Assembly: GCA_024137785.1 (NCBI GenBank)
Contig: JAHRHZ010000087.1
Coordinates: 19,510,029-19,574,028, forward strand
Direction of reading: 5' to 3'
DNA from: Ginglymostoma cirratum
Taxonomy: Eukaryota
DNA: 64,000 nt
A program made the position numbers and the translations under genes. Below the pieces are notes generated by a model, which ran no database searches, had not been told where the DNA came from, and was given only the letters and a program-made list of their open reading frames with translations. Positions 32,071 through 50,529 of the stretch are shown piece by piece; positions within the stretch are counted from its first letter, which is position 1, and every line of letters begins with the position of its first letter.

Positions 32071-33141
32071 TGAATAGGACAGATAACTATGCATCTCGTT
32101 AACAGGTCAGATTGAATATTTTAAATCTTCAATTCAGAATCTAAGCAAGATAGTGTAAATCAAACATGTTTATATCATGAGAAATGAAAGAGCAAGTGAG
32201 AAAGATAGAGTGAAGTGAATTTTCTTTTTAAATTCTCCAACAACCATTTAATCCTGAAGGGTTGGACTCCTGTCCCAGATCCTCCATTCCTCAGATTCTG
32301 TCTCTAAGGTTGGATGCAAGCTGGAAGGTGTGTCTCAGGAACCCCTTAAAGTCATGACCCCTGATAATTTGCTGAAATTGCATGGGAAGTTTTAACCTCT
32401 AAAGACCTGATTTTTCTGCGGCCTTGAACCCTCCTTTTGAAATCTAACCCCTGAGTTCAAGGTCAGAATCTTGTGCCAGAAATGTGAGAGACCCTGGATA
32501 TTTACTGTGAAAATTTTAGGCTGGTTAATAGCTAGTCATAACTCTAATTAGCCAGAAAAACTGAAATGAGGAGTGCAGCAATCTCGGATTGTTGCCTGGG
32601 AGGGGGATGGAGTCATCAACCAGGATGGAGAATTCCCATGCTTAATAGCAACTCTGATGTCAGAATTCTCATTACCATGTTTTAACTTAGAGCAGCTAAG
32701 CATGTATAGGATTTCCACTTGAATGCCAGTGACTACTAAGGCTCACCATTATTTGAGTGTGAAATGCAGTCCGATGAGTCGAAAGGAAAATAGAGACAGA
32801 CACCCAGCTCTCCAATTTTAGCAAAACAAATGCATATAGAAATGAATGTTAACTCAGTTTCAAACTAGACTGCTTTCAAAACAGCCTGTCAAAGAGCAAC
32901 TTCCTTTTTGGATTGTCGATTTCTTATTGTTCTTTATGTTCCTGACATTTGCATTGCAGTGTAAAGCAGTTACACACGTTTGTGCTAAGTGTCTTTATGA
33001 ATTGGAACTGTTTTTCTATTCATTACTATTTTTAGCACCAGAGCATAATACTGAACTATTTTTTTTTTGTTGTATCATTATTAATGGGCTAAATGGTGAC
33101 AATTTTAATCTTACTTTGAATGTTGTGTATTCTGCTTTCAG

Positions 33142-33292
33142 CAATTGAAACCCCTACATCTGTAAGTACAAGGATAGAAGAAAAGCAAGCTTTTGACATT
33201 GAAATTGAAATTCTAAAGCTTTATTTGTCTCAAATAATGTGGTAAGAATAAAATTTCAAGACCTCCAAGAAAGAACATCTGAAGAAGAGCCT
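33142..33292 (+). other. ZNF217: Probable 5'-UTR part of the first coding exon
   Basis: Acceptor TATTCTGCTTTCAG ends at 33141. The in-frame stop at 33206 prevents the main frame from extending upstream. Confidence 0.6.
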
Positions 33293-35003
33293 ATGCCTTG
33301 GTTTACTGATAAACCCACACGTGAATTTGTGATGAAGTCTACTGAGAGCACAATAACGAAAACATCTGAGGATGTCAAAGATGATGTGAACTTAACACTT
33401 GATGAATTTTCGAACCCAAAAAAGTCTGTTGAACACCATTGCTCAATTTGTGACCAGTGTTTTCCTTTTGATAGTCTTTTAACTCAACATATGCACATGC
33501 ATTCAAATGAAAAGCGTCCATTTTGTGATCGTAGGATTTCCCAGAAAGCAAATTTGAAAATACATCTTCAAAAGCACAAAGTGGACCATTTGCAGCAGGG
33601 TAGAAAATCTGGAAGAAATAAGGCCACTCTATCTACAAGCTTTGAAATCCCAAATGCTCTGTCTAATAGAATTTGTCCGAATGATGTTGAAATCAATGAG
33701 ATTGATGTGAAGCCAATAAATGGTGTTGCTTTGACCCTGGATGCTTTGGAAGGAAATACTGCAGTTCATGCTGAAGAGCTTCCACTTCTGCCTTGTATGT
33801 TTTGCAATAAAGGCTTTCAACACTCTGAAGAACTCCGTCACCATGTAGTAGTTCAGCACAGGCCCACGCTGTGTGAGCCTGCAGTCCTCCGAGTAGAGGA
33901 GGGTTTGAGTCCTATGGTAGAGACACACATTACAGCAAGTTCTCCAGAACAGGAGATTCATGATGAAGGTGAAGATGGTGAACTCAGCTGTAAAGTGTGT
34001 GGACTGTCTTGTGAGAGTGCTGTGAGTCTGGAAACTCACATGAGGAAACACAAGGATTCATTTATCTATGGTTGTAACGTATGCGGCCGACGCTTTAAGG
34101 AGCCTTGGTTCCTTAAAAACCACATGCGAACGCATTCGAGTAAAGCTAGGGGAAAATCTCAGCCAGATTCAGAAGGTCCTGCAACAATCAACAATGTCAT
34201 CATGCAGGAACCATTTTCTGGAAATGTTGTATCTCCTTATAAAATGTGCATGGTTTGTGGATTTCTTTTTCCCAATAAAGACAATTTGAAGGAACATAGT
34301 AAAGTTCACAACAAAGACATGCCTGATGATGATAGAATGGATGATTGTTCCTTAAATCAAGAAATTGTGGTACCACAGGAGGCATTCCTGCAAATGCTAC
34401 ATTTACGTCCCCTCTTATCACAAAATTGCAAACCTGTGAAACTTGGAAAATGGATACCCGAACTTGATCCCTTTAATACGTACCAGGCCTGGCAGCTGGC
34501 CACCAAGGGTAAAGTGGCAGTTGGCCGAGAGAACGTGAAAGATCCAGGGCAAATAGCCAACTCTGAGAATGAAGAGGAGCCCTCGGACAAAGAGGATTCC
34601 AGCGAACATTGGACCTCAGATAAAGGCCATCATGGTGCTACCATGGAGACCCTTGACAAGGCTAAAATCAAAAGCAGCAGTTTAGGCCAGAGTGGGCCAC
34701 CCACTGTGGTTGATGTTGATATTGAACCAAAATTGACCCAGAATAAAACCAAACCAACCAACTGTACAATGTGTGGTAAGATTTTTAGAACCTACCATCA
34801 ATTAGTGCTCCACTCCAGAGTACACAGGAAAGGCAGGAAAAGTGTAGAGAATCCTCCAAATTCGGTTGATATCAGTGAAGCTGGCACTCAATCCATTGAT
34901 TCCGTTAAAACGATTGAAGACCATAACCCAGAAACGGACAAACCTGAGGAGGGCTCTGAAGAGGGATCAGAAGATGGAGTACTAGGAGAAGGACTTTCAT
35001 CAG
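33293..35003 (+). CDS. ZNF217: ZNF217 coding exon 1 (extra N-terminal ZF pair, then ZF1-ZF5 of human numbering)
   Basis: The translation contains ZNF217-diagnostic strings: CMFC...QHRPTLCEPAVLRVE, HKDSFIYGCNVCGRRFKEPWFLKNHMRTH, SPYKMCMVCGFLFPNK, ELDPFNTYQAWQLATKGKVA and KPTNCTMCGKIFRTYHQLVLHSRVH. ATG 33293 is the first in-frame ATG after the in-frame TGA at 33206-33208; ATG 33332 is an alternative start with a better -3 base. Donor CAG|GTAGGA after 35003, phase 1. Likely acceptor TCTGCTTTCAG| ending at 33141. Confidence 0.93.
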
Positions 35004-38000
35004 GTAGGAGGGTTATACACTTATTGGGGTGCTTTCTCAAATTTGCTAATTCTCACTTTTCAAAATTTGAAGGTCCCTGTTGAGTCTCTTTGTTTAGTCT
35101 TGGATAAGAATCTGTGCTAACCTCTGACACGGTATCTCACCCAGAAAATCCAAATTTTGGGTGATGCTGTGGTATATTTAGTAACATTTCACAAAATTGA
35201 GTTATCTTTCCTTGTTCTGTATCGTTCTAAAATTATATCCCAAAGAAATATTTTTCTTGGTAAAAATGTAATTGAATTCTCCCTAAATAGTACATCCTGA
35301 AGGCCAATGGGTACCCAATAAATTGTATTATTTTTAAATAAGAGGTGAGATTATTGTGCTGCAACATTTAAAGGACTTCAGTAAATTGTTATTCTTAGAC
35401 TCCTTTTTGATTATTCCTTGCTATTCATTTCAAATTCAAATATAGATAATTGCAGTTGGAATATATTGCTTTAAGACTTCTCATTGTTTTGTTTCATTTC
35501 AAATGCTCTTTATATTATTGGCTTAATGATATAACTTCTAAACATTTATAATTAACACACATCCTCATTGAACGTTTGAGTTTCCAAGATTAAATTTTTA
35601 GCCCAAAGTAGGGGTGAATTTTTACTTAACATTTTGGAGAGATTGAAATTCTCCCTCCTGTTTTCTTATCATAGAATTGTCAGGTCAGAGAGACTGGTGC
35701 CAGGCTTGTCACAAACAAAGTAGCACAAAAGAAGCAGGAATGTATTTTTCTTGAATTGTGAGCTGCTTTTGTAGTATTCTGTGGTTCCATGAATGAGTAG
35801 GTTTGCATCAAGTCAAGTTTTGACTTCAGCGAGCAGGTGATAAGTACAAAGAGTTTTGATTTTTTTGACAAAGTCAGTAATCAATTTTTACATGAAATCG
35901 ACCATTATTTGAGGTTATATAGTAATTAAAACCAGCTTTGCTTAAAAATCTTGTATACCCCATTACAGTTTCAATTGGTTTCTCTGTGTATGAGGAAGGG
36001 TCTAAACCATTTATTTAAAATCCAATTTGTGGGATTTGATCAACTATGTAATGAATATGCTTGGTGTTGCGAACTTTTGGTTTTGAATTTTTTTAAAACA
36101 ACTTATATTATTCGAATGAGTACAGATTGCTTCCATAAGGTCGTGAGGAAAGGAAAAGAGCTTACATGACATTTTGCAAAAGCAGCAGCTTTTCTTTTCA
36201 CTACGCAAGTAGCTCAGTATGACTACTCTGCTCTTTTTTTTTGAAAAGAGGCATAATGTAGCTAAATTATGCTGTTTTTAAGTAAAATTTTATTGCTGTT
36301 TAAAGCTAAACTAAAAAGTCTAGTGTAATGTTGTTCTGATGCCTTTGAAGTATGGGATAAATACATTGAAAACAGCACTTGAAATAAACTGGTGTTCCCT
36401 ATTTGTATCCTATGCATGCTACAAACTTGAGCAGATGGAGCAGCTGGTTGTGAGTAAGTGAAGGGTTTCTGTCTATGCAATAACTGAAAAATGTAGCTTC
36501 AACAAAAGCCGATAAAATACTTCAAAGAGCAAATTAATATGCAAAATGTAATAAGCATGAAGTTTGTTTGCACCAATTTTTTTTTGGCGCGCACACACTT
36601 ACGGGGGACATCTCAGTGGATCCGATAATGGCCAGCATGGTCTTCATGAGTGTAAGATATGAAGACATACCATCTTCCTTGGGTTATTTTGCTTCTGCAC
36701 CACTTTTCCCTGCAAGAGAGGAGAAAGTTTGTTCATGAGTGTGGTGCATTGTATTTGGGTGATGTGGCTGGCTGTGGTGTGAGTGAGTGTATAGTGACGC
36801 CCATGTGTGTTAATAGGGGTTGTTTGTTGGGAGAGTGAAGAAGTGGTGAATTGAACAATGACCGAGGCTAATGGTGCTGGTATAACAACATTTGAAAATA
36901 CGTTTGCTGACCTTGACCAATGGTGTAAGACTGATCTATTTCGGGACCACTTCCAGGCCACTGGGACTAGATTTTTGCATCAACCTTCATGATTATCAGT
37001 TTCCACTGTATCCTGGGTGACTTCTGGCTTCTGGATACAGGATATCTTTCAATTTTCTATCGTTTCCTCAAGGTACTATAATATAAATCACCAAAGTCCT
37101 GAATCCTGTTTCTACAGTATGCCATTATTTAATGGTCCTCAAGTGAGATTCAGTTTATGCACCTGTCCTTTAAGCAGTGTCAGCTACTTGTGCTATTTTG
37201 TCTCTTCTCATATGTCTACCATTCAACAGCATGGTTAATTTGGGCTGGATGTTGAAATAATTGAAATGTGCAGAAATTTGGTATGCAGCTTGTGTTGCAG
37301 TCACTGGGTGTTGGTCAGTTTTGCAATATAAATTACGCACGTCATTTTGCAAGGACTTTGGAATTTACTACCTCCCCTGATAACTTGGGCGTAGAATATC
37401 TATGGCAGAGTAAATTTTTGAGGACTACCCACTGCCACCTGATTAGTTGCAAAATGCATGTGGAAGGGTTTGCCAACATGGCATGCTGCTGGTACATGGA
37501 TATGTTGCCATGCGCAATGCCTGATTTCATTTCATTTAGTGTGAGTACAATCTAATTGCATCTTGGTTGAAGTGCTACTGTTTGAACTGCTGTGCTTCCC
37601 ATGAATTGTTTTACCCAAAAATTTGAAGCTGGTAGCTAATTTTGGTCATGTGACAGTGTCAATTGAATGTAATCTGATTGCTTCCATGTGTTTTACAGTA
37701 ATTGTATGAAAGCAAATGACAGACCACGATGAATAAAACAACCACTTCCACCTAGATGAGAATAGTGTTTTATTTGGATATGCTTGGAAACTTCTTGACA
37801 TCTTTACTGTAAAGATGCCAGAAATGGCTTGTTTGGCATTATTCTAATGACACAATCAAACTGAAATTAATTTCAATCAGTTTGAGGTTGAAACTGCCTT
37901 GAAACTGCAATTTTATAATGACTGGTGAAACTGACCAACTCCTAAACATTCACATTAGGGCAGTGACTGAGCAGACTTTTGCTGGTTAATTTCATTGCTT

Positions 38001-38939: not shown

Positions 38940-39203
38940 GGGCAAAGCGATGACTCAGTGGTTAGCACTGTGGCCTTGCAGCACCAGCGACCCAAGTTCA
39001 TTTCAGGCTCAGGTGACTGTGTGGAGTTTGCATGCTCTTCCGCTGTCTGTGTGGGTTTGCTCCCAGGTGCTCCGGTTTCTTCCCGCAGTCTGAAGATGTG
39101 CAGGTTAGATGGATTGGCCATGCTAAATTGCCCATAGTTTCCCAGGCATGTGCAGGCTGGATGTGGATCTGGGTGGGAGCTCTTTCGAGAGTCAGTGTGG
39201 ACT
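38940..39203 (+). mobile_element. HE1-like / V-SINE
   Basis: TGACTCAGTGGTTAGCACTG...GTGTGGAGTTTGCATGCTCT...AAGATGTGCAGGTTAGATGGATTGGCCATGCTAAATTGCCC; homologous to the copy at 25827. Confidence 0.85.
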
Positions 39204-40925: not shown

Positions 40926-41051
40926 ATCGGAGTGAGGATGGCTCAGAACGAGGAAGAAGTAGAGAGACTGGCTCATCTGGTGAATGCAGTTACTGTGGAA
41001 AGTCTTTCCGCTCAAACTATTACCTCAATATTCATCTCAGGATACACACAG
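40926..41051 (+). CDS. ZNF217: ZNF217 coding exon 2 (ZF6)
   Basis: Polypyrimidine tract plus TCTAG| acceptor at 40925. The 126-nt phase 1-1 exon encodes DRSEDG...ECSYCGKSFRSNYYLNIHLRIHTG. Donor CAG|GTGTGT. Confidence 0.95.
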
Positions 41052-43063: not shown

Positions 43064-44806
43064 GTGAAAAGCCCCATCGGTGTCCTCTCTGTGACTACGC
43101 CGCAGCTCAAAAGACCTCACTTAAATATCACTTGGAGCGACACCACAAGGGTGAGCAGAAGAAGGCTGAAGAAAAAAATGATCCTCTGAAGAATTCATCA
43201 GCATCTCCCAAGTTGGAAGTAGTACCAAAAGGAAGTGATGAACCTGTTCAGGAATCTGTGGACTCGACAAGATTGTTTACAGATTCTTTGGGCAGTGCCA
43301 AAGATTTAGATGCAGACTTTCCTCCAAGGAAGCACAAAGAGATTCCTCCTTCTTGTTCTGTGTTTGCTAATGCTGTGTTTTCAAATGTGAGCAGGGAGCT
43401 TCCTGACTTGAACAGGGATGCTAGTTTGCATCACGGTCGCCCAATCTTCTGCAACGCAGTGCTACCATACTGCAAAAAATCAAAGGGTGAAAAGGTGATG
43501 GGTGAGTCGCTCAGGAATGACTCTGATCCAAAGGTGGTTCTTGACACTGAAACATCAAAGGTTTTGGAGGAATGTTTAATGGAAGGGTTGTCAGAAGGCG
43601 GCGTTCCACAGAATAATGCTACAAATACAAGATGGGAGCCTGCTTCAATAAATGATCAATGCTATGTTAGTACTCTAGTTAAATTAGAGGACTTCGATGA
43701 TCAATCTGAATGCAGCTCTTTGGAAAATCCCTTGAATCTTTGCACGGTGATGTATCAGAAAAGTCTGTGTAGCGATGGTAGTCCTCTGGGAAATGCAGCT
43801 ACCTCAGTTTCCAAGAGTGCCTTACTGAGCAACGCATGCCCATTTTGTACTTACAGAACTTTGTACCCAGAGGTCTTAGTGATGCACCAAAGGGTGGTGC
43901 ATAAATACAATGCTGACCCAAGCCCAATAAATGGAATGCGAAGTGCTGTTTGTAGTGGGTCAGTTAAAAGCAGACGCACTGGATGCCCCCCTGCACTATT
44001 AGGTCAAGATGTTTCTTCTTTACTTGCCACCAAAGAAACAAGCAGAGAATTTTCTCGTCGGACCAAGTCACCAGTACCAGCAACTTCACCAGATGCTTCA
44101 AACTTGCTGCTTGGGAAGGCAAAATCATCATCGTCATCGTTATCATCTTTGTCATCATTACATCAGTCTCAGTGCAATAACTTTCTTCCCTCTGCAGCAG
44201 GATCCAGATCTTCAGGTGACTTTAAAACATTTAAAGCAACCCAAAATTCCAGTGCACATCTAGAAAATTATCGATCCATACGTACTGAACTTAGACAGAT
44301 GCCAGATGTAGTTCAAAGAATAGAAAGAAGTGGACCATCAGAATCTGTCAATAGTAAAAGAAATATCTCTGAAAAACCCTGTATCAAGTTGGACTATGAA
44401 CCTGATGGACCTAGAGGATCTTTAGTTAGATTTGACAGTCTTTGGGCTTCAAATGTTAGCAAAATGTGTCTTACTGATGTGTCTGAAAATCAGGGAGGCT
44501 TGGACTCACATGAGCCTACAGCTAAAAAAATGAAACTAAACAGTCCTTTAAGGAATGATCACCTTACATTTGGAGCTAGGAGGGGTGTGCAAGGAAGAAA
44601 TGTGAAATTATCTCCAGAAATGCCTTCTGTTCAGGCAAGAAACTCTGGGATACCATCTAAGTCCGGATCAACGTTGGATTCAAATGGAGTTGACTCGCAT
44701 TGGAATGTATTGAAACTTTTGAAGTCCTATGGCCCACAAGATCTTGCCTCATTGTATAATAACTGTGGACCCAGTAATAGTGGAGACCCTAATATCAGTC
44801 AAGAAG
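43064..44806 (+). CDS. ZNF217: ZNF217 coding exon 3 (ZF7, ZF8, CtBP-binding motifs)
   Basis: Acceptor TTTTGCTTTAG| at 43063. Encodes GEKPHRCPLCDYAAAQKTSLKYHLERHH, PLNLC, CPFCTYRTLYPEVLVMHQRVVH and RRTGCPPALLG. Length 1743 nt, phase 1-1. Donor AAG|GTAGGT after 44806. Confidence 0.95.
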
Positions 44807-50419: not shown

Positions 50420-50529
50420 GGAAAAGACCTTTCCAATACCTGCAGCACTCTAACAGTATGTCACAAAAAAGGAGCATTAATCACCCTCATAGTGGATCTT
50501 TAGACAAGAAAGAGTACATGACCCAATGA
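50420..50529 (+). CDS. ZNF217: ZNF217 last coding exon
   Basis: Not in the ORF track. Acceptor TTTTATACAG| at 50419. In phase 1 it reads GKRPFQYLQHSNSMSQKRSINHPHSGSLDKKEYMTQ-TGA, resembling the recalled mammalian C-terminus GKRPVSYQHLSNSMAQKR. Confidence 0.88.

Follow-up and report, generated by a model that had tools for sequence, protein, structure and literature searches.

In our reading, which we consider rather likely, shark ZNF217 carries two probably ancestral zinc fingers ahead of the canonical ones. The first of them (finger a) is predicted to fold, the second (finger b) lacks its first Cys, and together they would form an accessory module of low affinity. The gene was analysed in a stretch of 64,000 nucleotides of a contig from Ginglymostoma cirratum, here called the window, and the features discussed below are collected in Table 1.

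Gene structure and identity

The reading frame is open throughout positions 33209-35083 of the forward strand and, counted from the ATG at 33293, the first canonical ZNF217 finger begins at residue 168. The open frame and a peptide at 33440-33577 ahead of that finger had been pointed out in a preliminary description of this DNA, and both are found in the window. The coding exons (33293-35003, 40926-41051, 43064-44806 and 50420-50529) are separated by GT..AG introns and amount to 3690 nt; their translation gives the product of 1229 amino acids that had been proposed. This product has nine complete C2H2 patterns against the canonical eight, the ninth being finger a. The canonical eight are present in order at residues 168, 233, 261, 319, 491, 591, 619 and 871; of the two kinds of CtBP-binding motif, RRT is seen at residue 916, whereas the PXDLS pattern has no match and a PLNLC variant lies at residue 835.

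Table 1. Features of the ZNF217 gene in the window
Feature	Position	Strand	Basis
First coding exon of ZNF217, short 5' leader and codons 1-570	33142..35003	+	Spliced contig; AG at 33140-33141, GT at 35004; GT..AG joint to next exon
Two-codon uORF ATG TGG TAA, out of frame	33237..33245	+	Sequence
Former first 17 codons, still in frame	33242..33292	+	Alignment; tblastn with P0004 begins at 33242
First in-frame ATG, likely start, weak context	33293..33295	+	Met invariant in 13 rows of an alignment
Finger a, complete C2H2, homologue of finger 1 of ZNF516/536/219	33440..33502	+	Alignment, profile score, AlphaFold
Shortened linker and finger b (finger b itself 33515-33577), homologue of family finger 2	33503..33577	+	Alignment, profile score
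Linker; its first part corresponds to the site of the start Met in bony vertebrates; no in-frame ATG	33578..33793	+	Alignment, ATG scan
Canonical first finger of ZNF217, equal to family finger 3	33794..33859	+	Alignment, pattern count
Remnant of family finger 4, three-residue gap where paralogues have the first Cys; TLCEP stretch	33860..33895	+	Alignment
Second coding exon, canonical finger 6	40926..41051	+	tblastn, spliced contig, pattern count
Third coding exon, fingers 7 and 8 and RRT motif	43064..44806	+	Spliced contig, pattern count
Last coding exon, to the stop codon	50420..50529	+	tblastn, spliced contig, pattern count

In a tree of 34 proteins, from which the N-terminal pair was excluded, the window sequence is placed within ZNF217 with support of 100/100, and ZNF516 is the sister of ZNF217 (98/95). 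The core of the protein (residues 160-420), used as a query, matched 623 proteins among 809 candidates; among the 120 matches listed, those with a gene name are called ZNF217, and the best is from whale shark (98%), which puts the source of the window close to whale and bamboo sharks. The window protein neither groups with ZNF516 nor has a complete finger 4, and ZNF516 is annotated as a protein of its own in Chiloscyllium, Hemiscyllium, Pristis and Callorhinchus. The identification of the gene as ZNF217 rather than ZNF516, made in the preliminary description, is thus confirmed by the pair-free core tree and by the existence of a separate shark ZNF516. TSHZ2 and BCAS1 are the neighbours of ZNF217. 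No second member of the ZNF217/516/536/219 family was found among the window ORFs of at least 150 aa.

Two minor features were observed in the same gene. A serine-rich short tandem expansion is present at 44124-44165 in the third coding exon, where the contig of run X12, from a related shark, has 6 nt less. In the first intron of the coding part, a short repeat at 39060-39145, which is probably a SINE-like element, is matched at great depth by reads, and also by contigs, that stem from other parts of the transcriptome.

Transcript and translation start

The N-terminal extension sits on a spliced mRNA exon. A spliced contig (run X2, record 7) matches 33139-35001 with no other letters and no gaps, and is joined by GT..AG splices to the next two exons; run X2 is probably RNA, to judge from these spliced joins. 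The matched part is preceded by 22 letters, which is consistent with an acceptor at 33141. Raw poly(A) reads of run X21 are thin over the extension, with a mean depth of about 1 and 3 in two bins (32802-34103); five of them span the first exon joint, and run X22 contributed 2 reads.

In-frame ATGs occur at 33293, 33332 (with G at -3), 33491 and 33497, and then at 33797, within the first canonical finger. Since the window sequence has no in-frame ATG between 33497 and 33797, a protein that starts at an AUG and has its first canonical finger complete must also contain finger b, if not more of the pair. At the codon where most other chondrichthyans have their first Met, the window has GTA (TTA in run X12), and the uORF overlaps this spot. 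Present neutrality of the 17 codons ahead of 33293 was considered and dropped, as their pN/pS of 0.49 on 9 changes is not clearly different from that of the leader.

The N-terminal finger pair

Alignment and profile scores identify the pair as the homologue of the first two fingers of ZNF516, ZNF536 and ZNF219. Profiles for the two fingers were built from 22 paralogue proteins, with ZNF217 excluded. Finger a reaches 37.3 bits on the finger-1 profile, a score attained by 10 of 1740 unrelated fingers, and finger b reaches 37.0 bits on the finger-2 profile, attained by none of the 1740. The homology of the pair to the ZNF516/ZNF536 type, as first described, therefore stands.

Finger b has three of the four zinc ligands; it is three residues short, a change that takes away the first Cys and the first strand. 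Its second Cys, its two His and, in the helix, Q(-1), N(3) and I(6) are retained and match the paralogues. The linker within the pair is also shortened by three residues, is devoid of Gly and is not of the TGEKP type. In the AlphaFold model of the window sequence, which is confident for finger a only, the fold of finger a is strand-strand-helix, at a pLDDT of about 80, whereas finger b is a plain low-confidence helix with no hairpin (pLDDT 48-55); a fold search with the 161-residue model gave nothing at E 0.001 or better. The earlier suggestion that the gene keeps the ancestral pair architecture stands as regards the homologous pair and the complete finger a, but not as regards finger b, which is degenerate in the window and leaves the pair incomplete.

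Distribution in cartilaginous fish

Protein models with the pair were found in all 15 named chondrichthyan species retrieved, elephant shark included. Stops or frameshifts in other chondrichthyans, which the preliminary description had considered, are not what these models present, since the pair is in frame in the 15 species. A search with the intact Heterodontus pair gave 12 matches among 36 candidates, all of them elasmobranch ZNF217.

Finger b is intact in eight of the 15 species (Callorhinchus, Heptranchias, Pristiophorus, Heterodontus, Narcine, Leucoraja, Rhinoraja and Amblyraja) and has lost its first Cys in the other seven, as well as in the window. A three-residue gap removes this Cys in Rhincodon, Chiloscyllium, Cetorhinus, Scyliorhinus, Mustelus and the window; in the rays Pristis and Mobula the length is kept and the Cys is replaced by Arg or His. 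The accepted tree of sharks and rays is the frame for counting these losses, and the three deletion-bearing rows of the core tree agree with it (95/84). On that tree, the aligned sequences indicate that the first Cys of finger b is lost at least twice, independently, within elasmobranchs.

Among 173 ZNF217-type proteins, a redundant set, finger a is present in 26, of which 18 have finger b intact and 8 do not; three have finger b alone and 144 have neither. The last number includes three UniRef ZNF217 models of Callorhinchus with different N-termini and no pair, against one RefSeq-derived model of this species that has it; the pair-less models are probably errors. The occurrence of TLCEP in 169 of the 173 was not used, because the set had been chosen by this motif, which makes the count circular. 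The Pristis model (P0006, residues 185-280) has an extra finger pattern at residue 257 and is about 70 residues longer in this part than its relatives, which is either a duplication or a model error.

Loss in bony vertebrates

The proteins of bichir, sturgeon, paddlefish, coelacanth, lungfish, frog and amniotes start at a Met that aligns just behind finger b, a position at which sharks have no Met. The three proteins with finger b alone belong to two caecilians, Rhinatrema and Geotrypetes. Their models (P0093 and P0076/P0289, residues 1-40, homologous to 33497-33620) have an intact finger b before the canonical Met, with all four ligands and with QKRK or QKRQ in the helix in place of QKGN. On the finger-2 profile they obtain 42.6 and 36.5 bits, and none of the 1740 unrelated fingers reaches either value. 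In the alignment, the last Met of shark finger a stands opposite the annotated start Met of the caecilian proteins. The distance from finger b to the next finger is 87 residues in caecilians, 77-90 in chondrichthyan ZNF217 (89-90 in elasmobranchs) and 79-98 in the paralogues.

In a third caecilian, Microcaecilia, the annotated protein lacks finger b. The search with the caecilian N-terminus (28 matches among 67 candidates) revealed no further bony vertebrate with finger b, the full query being covered only by the two caecilian clusters. A possible finger-b fossil in newt was rejected as marginal, since its scores against three references are reached by 50, 120 and 45 of 2000 shuffles, and its 5.8 bits on the finger-2 profile are reached by 847 of the 1740 unrelated fingers. 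Similar candidates in owl, tarsier and spadefoot, and two further upstream extensions, were not significant.

A loss on the lineage leading to mammals, as had been suggested, is too narrow a statement, because proteins from ray-finned fish to amniotes are annotated behind the pair and two caecilians keep finger b. As these caecilians have an intact finger b in front of the bony-vertebrate Met, the loss in bony vertebrates was likely piecemeal and not specific to mammals; this timing is read from annotated proteins only, in which unannotated upstream remnants stay hidden. In the coelacanth models (P0280 and P0129, residues 53-80), the Cys pair of the canonical first finger is lost as well.

Constraint on the pair

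The contig of run X12 was compared codon by codon with the window, the pair corresponding to codons 48-95. The changes listed are 4 synonymous and 1 nonsynonymous in the pair (pN/pS 0.05, five changes in all), 4 and 6 in the leader (0.38), and 6 and 7 in the linker (0.33). For the listed changes, the Fisher test gives p = 0.003 for the pair itself and p = 0.02 for its contrast with the flanks. Compared by eye, the 14 amino-acid changes listed for codons 1-131 are the ones that separate the window from P0003, so the list looks complete over these codons. The 121 nt at 33387-33507, a stretch that covers finger a, show zero differences of either kind among those listed, for an exon average of about 8 in 100.

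Among five deletion-bearing sharks, identity is 0.90 in finger a and 0.89 in finger b, compared with 0.69 in the linker behind them; from these alignments, the damaged remnant of finger b is still conserved. Over 16 rows, the conservation of fingers a and b (0.81 and 0.74) is below that of canonical fingers 2-5 (0.91-0.98). The four ligands of finger a are complete in 16 of 16 rows, and finger b of Scyliorhinus has lost its first His too. All 18 chondrichthyan ZNF217 rows whose finger b is intact lack the linker Gly, against a TGEKP linker in 44 of the 83 pairs matched overall.

Origin and fate of the pair

The pair was likely inherited from the common ancestor of ZNF217, ZNF516, ZNF536 and ZNF219, to judge from its alignment and phylogeny. 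In a pair tree of 58 columns, the chondrichthyan ZNF217 pairs form their own group (93/95). A gain in cartilaginous fish, by conversion or shuffling from ZNF516, would fit the ZNF516 type of the pair and an old clade of all chondrichthyan ZNF217 and ZNF516 pairs, which the test does not reject (p-AU 0.18). We regard it as highly improbable, because the grouping with elasmobranch ZNF516 pairs that a recent elasmobranch copy would give is rejected (p-AU 0.018), pair and core are encoded by a shared exon, finger b occupies the corresponding position in caecilian ZNF217, and a hagfish family member carries the pair. A decaying vestige, translated and tolerated with no function beyond leaving the protein undisturbed, is an unlikely but more serious reading of the extension. 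The repeated loss of the first Cys of finger b, the first His lost in Scyliorhinus, the absence of the linker Gly, the lower conservation relative to canonical fingers 2-5 and the fact that bony vertebrates mostly manage without the pair all speak for it; the low pN/pS, the invariant ligands of finger a and the conservation of both fingers above the flanking linker in deletion-bearing sharks speak against it.

Some three-ligand zinc fingers fold, and finger b might bind zinc by three ligands and a water molecule or a substitute residue, so that the pair would be a working tandem DNA reader with its own specificity. The retained second Cys, His residues and helix positions, as in the paralogues, are in agreement with this, but the deletion costs the finger its first strand and the linker three residues, and the model of the window sequence shows a low-confidence helix with no hairpin, which makes such a reader very unlikely. 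No paper on the loss of the first Cys in a C2H2 finger was found in a search of the open literature. The favoured reading, two ancestral fingers kept as an accessory module, has its own difficulties. The ATG at 33293 is in a weak context with the uORF ahead of it; the pair-less Callorhinchus models and the Microcaecilia annotation do not conform to it; the pair tree does not unite caecilian and shark pairs, though a tree in which they are held together is not rejected (p-AU 0.075); and the pN/pS of the pair rests on five listed changes.

With ancestral retention, the history may have been as follows. The first jawed-vertebrate ZNF217 would have had ten fingers, of which cartilaginous fish retained the pair. 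In the bony-vertebrate ancestor, the gain of a Met just behind finger b would have made the pair dispensable, and it would then have decayed at different times, finger b surviving in caecilians. Carpet, mackerel and ground sharks would have lost the first Cys of finger b through a three-residue deletion, whereas a substitution would have removed it in Pristis and Mobula.

Possible function

Human ZNF217 is described as a protein with eight C2H2 fingers, of which ZF1-4 bind CoREST and ZF6-7 bind DNA (PMC11905140, PMC12939413), and ZNF516 as a CtBP/LSD1/CoREST repressor with ten (PMC5612949). According to another report, the first three fingers of human ZNF219 are the ones that bind DNA (PMC3805895). 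As human ZNF219 reads DNA with these fingers and ZNF217 with ZF6-7, the ancestral pair was probably a second DNA contact, but the same report describes zebrafish ZNF219L as bound to its target via fingers 6 and 9 and not the N-terminal ones (PMC3805895), which counts against this role. The unit of the window would be one folded finger and a basic helix adding a weak DNA or protein contact, and not a full two-finger DNA reader. We suggest, at slightly less than even odds, that the pair adds to the chromatin residence of a repressor that recruits CoREST and CtBP, with fingers 6-7 as the main DNA reader.

Comparison with known family members

The window protein shares with human and other bony-vertebrate ZNF217, its orthologues in the tree, the eight canonical fingers in order, the family core and the RRT motif; it differs from them by about 100 more N-terminal residues, which include finger a and the degenerate finger b. 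ZNF516, the sister paralogue, has an N-terminal pair of the same type and spacing, but is a separate gene in sharks, with an undamaged pair joined by a TGEKP-type linker and with a complete finger 4. The paired layout is found again in ZNF536 and ZNF219, with a finger 2 helix nearly identical to that of the window, but their finger 1 helix reads FNSILSL instead of FDSLLTQ and they are outside the clade of ZNF217 and ZNF516.

The RefSeq ZNF217 proteins of whale shark, bamboo shark, other elasmobranchs and elephant shark are already annotated with the N-terminus seen in the window, by automatic annotation only, and that of whale shark is 98% identical to the window over the first exon. The longer ZNF217 proteins are therefore already public and do not represent a new kind of system. 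In the open literature, we found no description of the pair, its decay or its history, and no papers on the evolution of ZNF217 fingers or treating ZNF217, ZNF516 and ZNF536 together; subscription papers or supplementary alignments may mention the pair.

The amplified oncogene ZNF217 has been described as a protein of eight fingers; by this comparison, its layout is a trimmed version of the ZNF516/536/219 plan. With its first canonical finger as family finger 3 and TLCEP as a leftover finger, finger-mapping results may be transferable among the four paralogues, and the TLCEP remnant is a surface worth mutating in the CoREST-binding region. The comparison also yields a dated series of natural finger losses, with the ancestral pair in cartilaginous fish and, in part, in caecilians.

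The finger 4 remnant and a possible recurrent deletion

The gap at the first Cys of family finger 4 is found in 26 of 27 ZNF217 rows, with a larger gap in the coelacanth row, and the residues are kept in 18 of 19 paralogue rows. The deletion in shark finger b repeats that of finger 4 at the equivalent place. A speculative and rather unlikely extension of these observations is that ZNF217 repeatedly converted finger pairs into units of a single finger and a tail devoid of Cys, each time through this kind of three-residue deletion, first at family fingers 3-4 in the ZNF217 stem and later at fingers 1-2 in galeoid sharks. Such units would be selected protein-binding modules and not debris, and longer ZNF217 forms with an extra finger, from upstream starts, might exist in other bony vertebrates. 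If so, sharks, rays and caecilians would represent a natural series of a DNA-reading pair changing jobs.

The finger 4 remnant itself sits within the CoREST-binding region and is kept from sharks to mammals.
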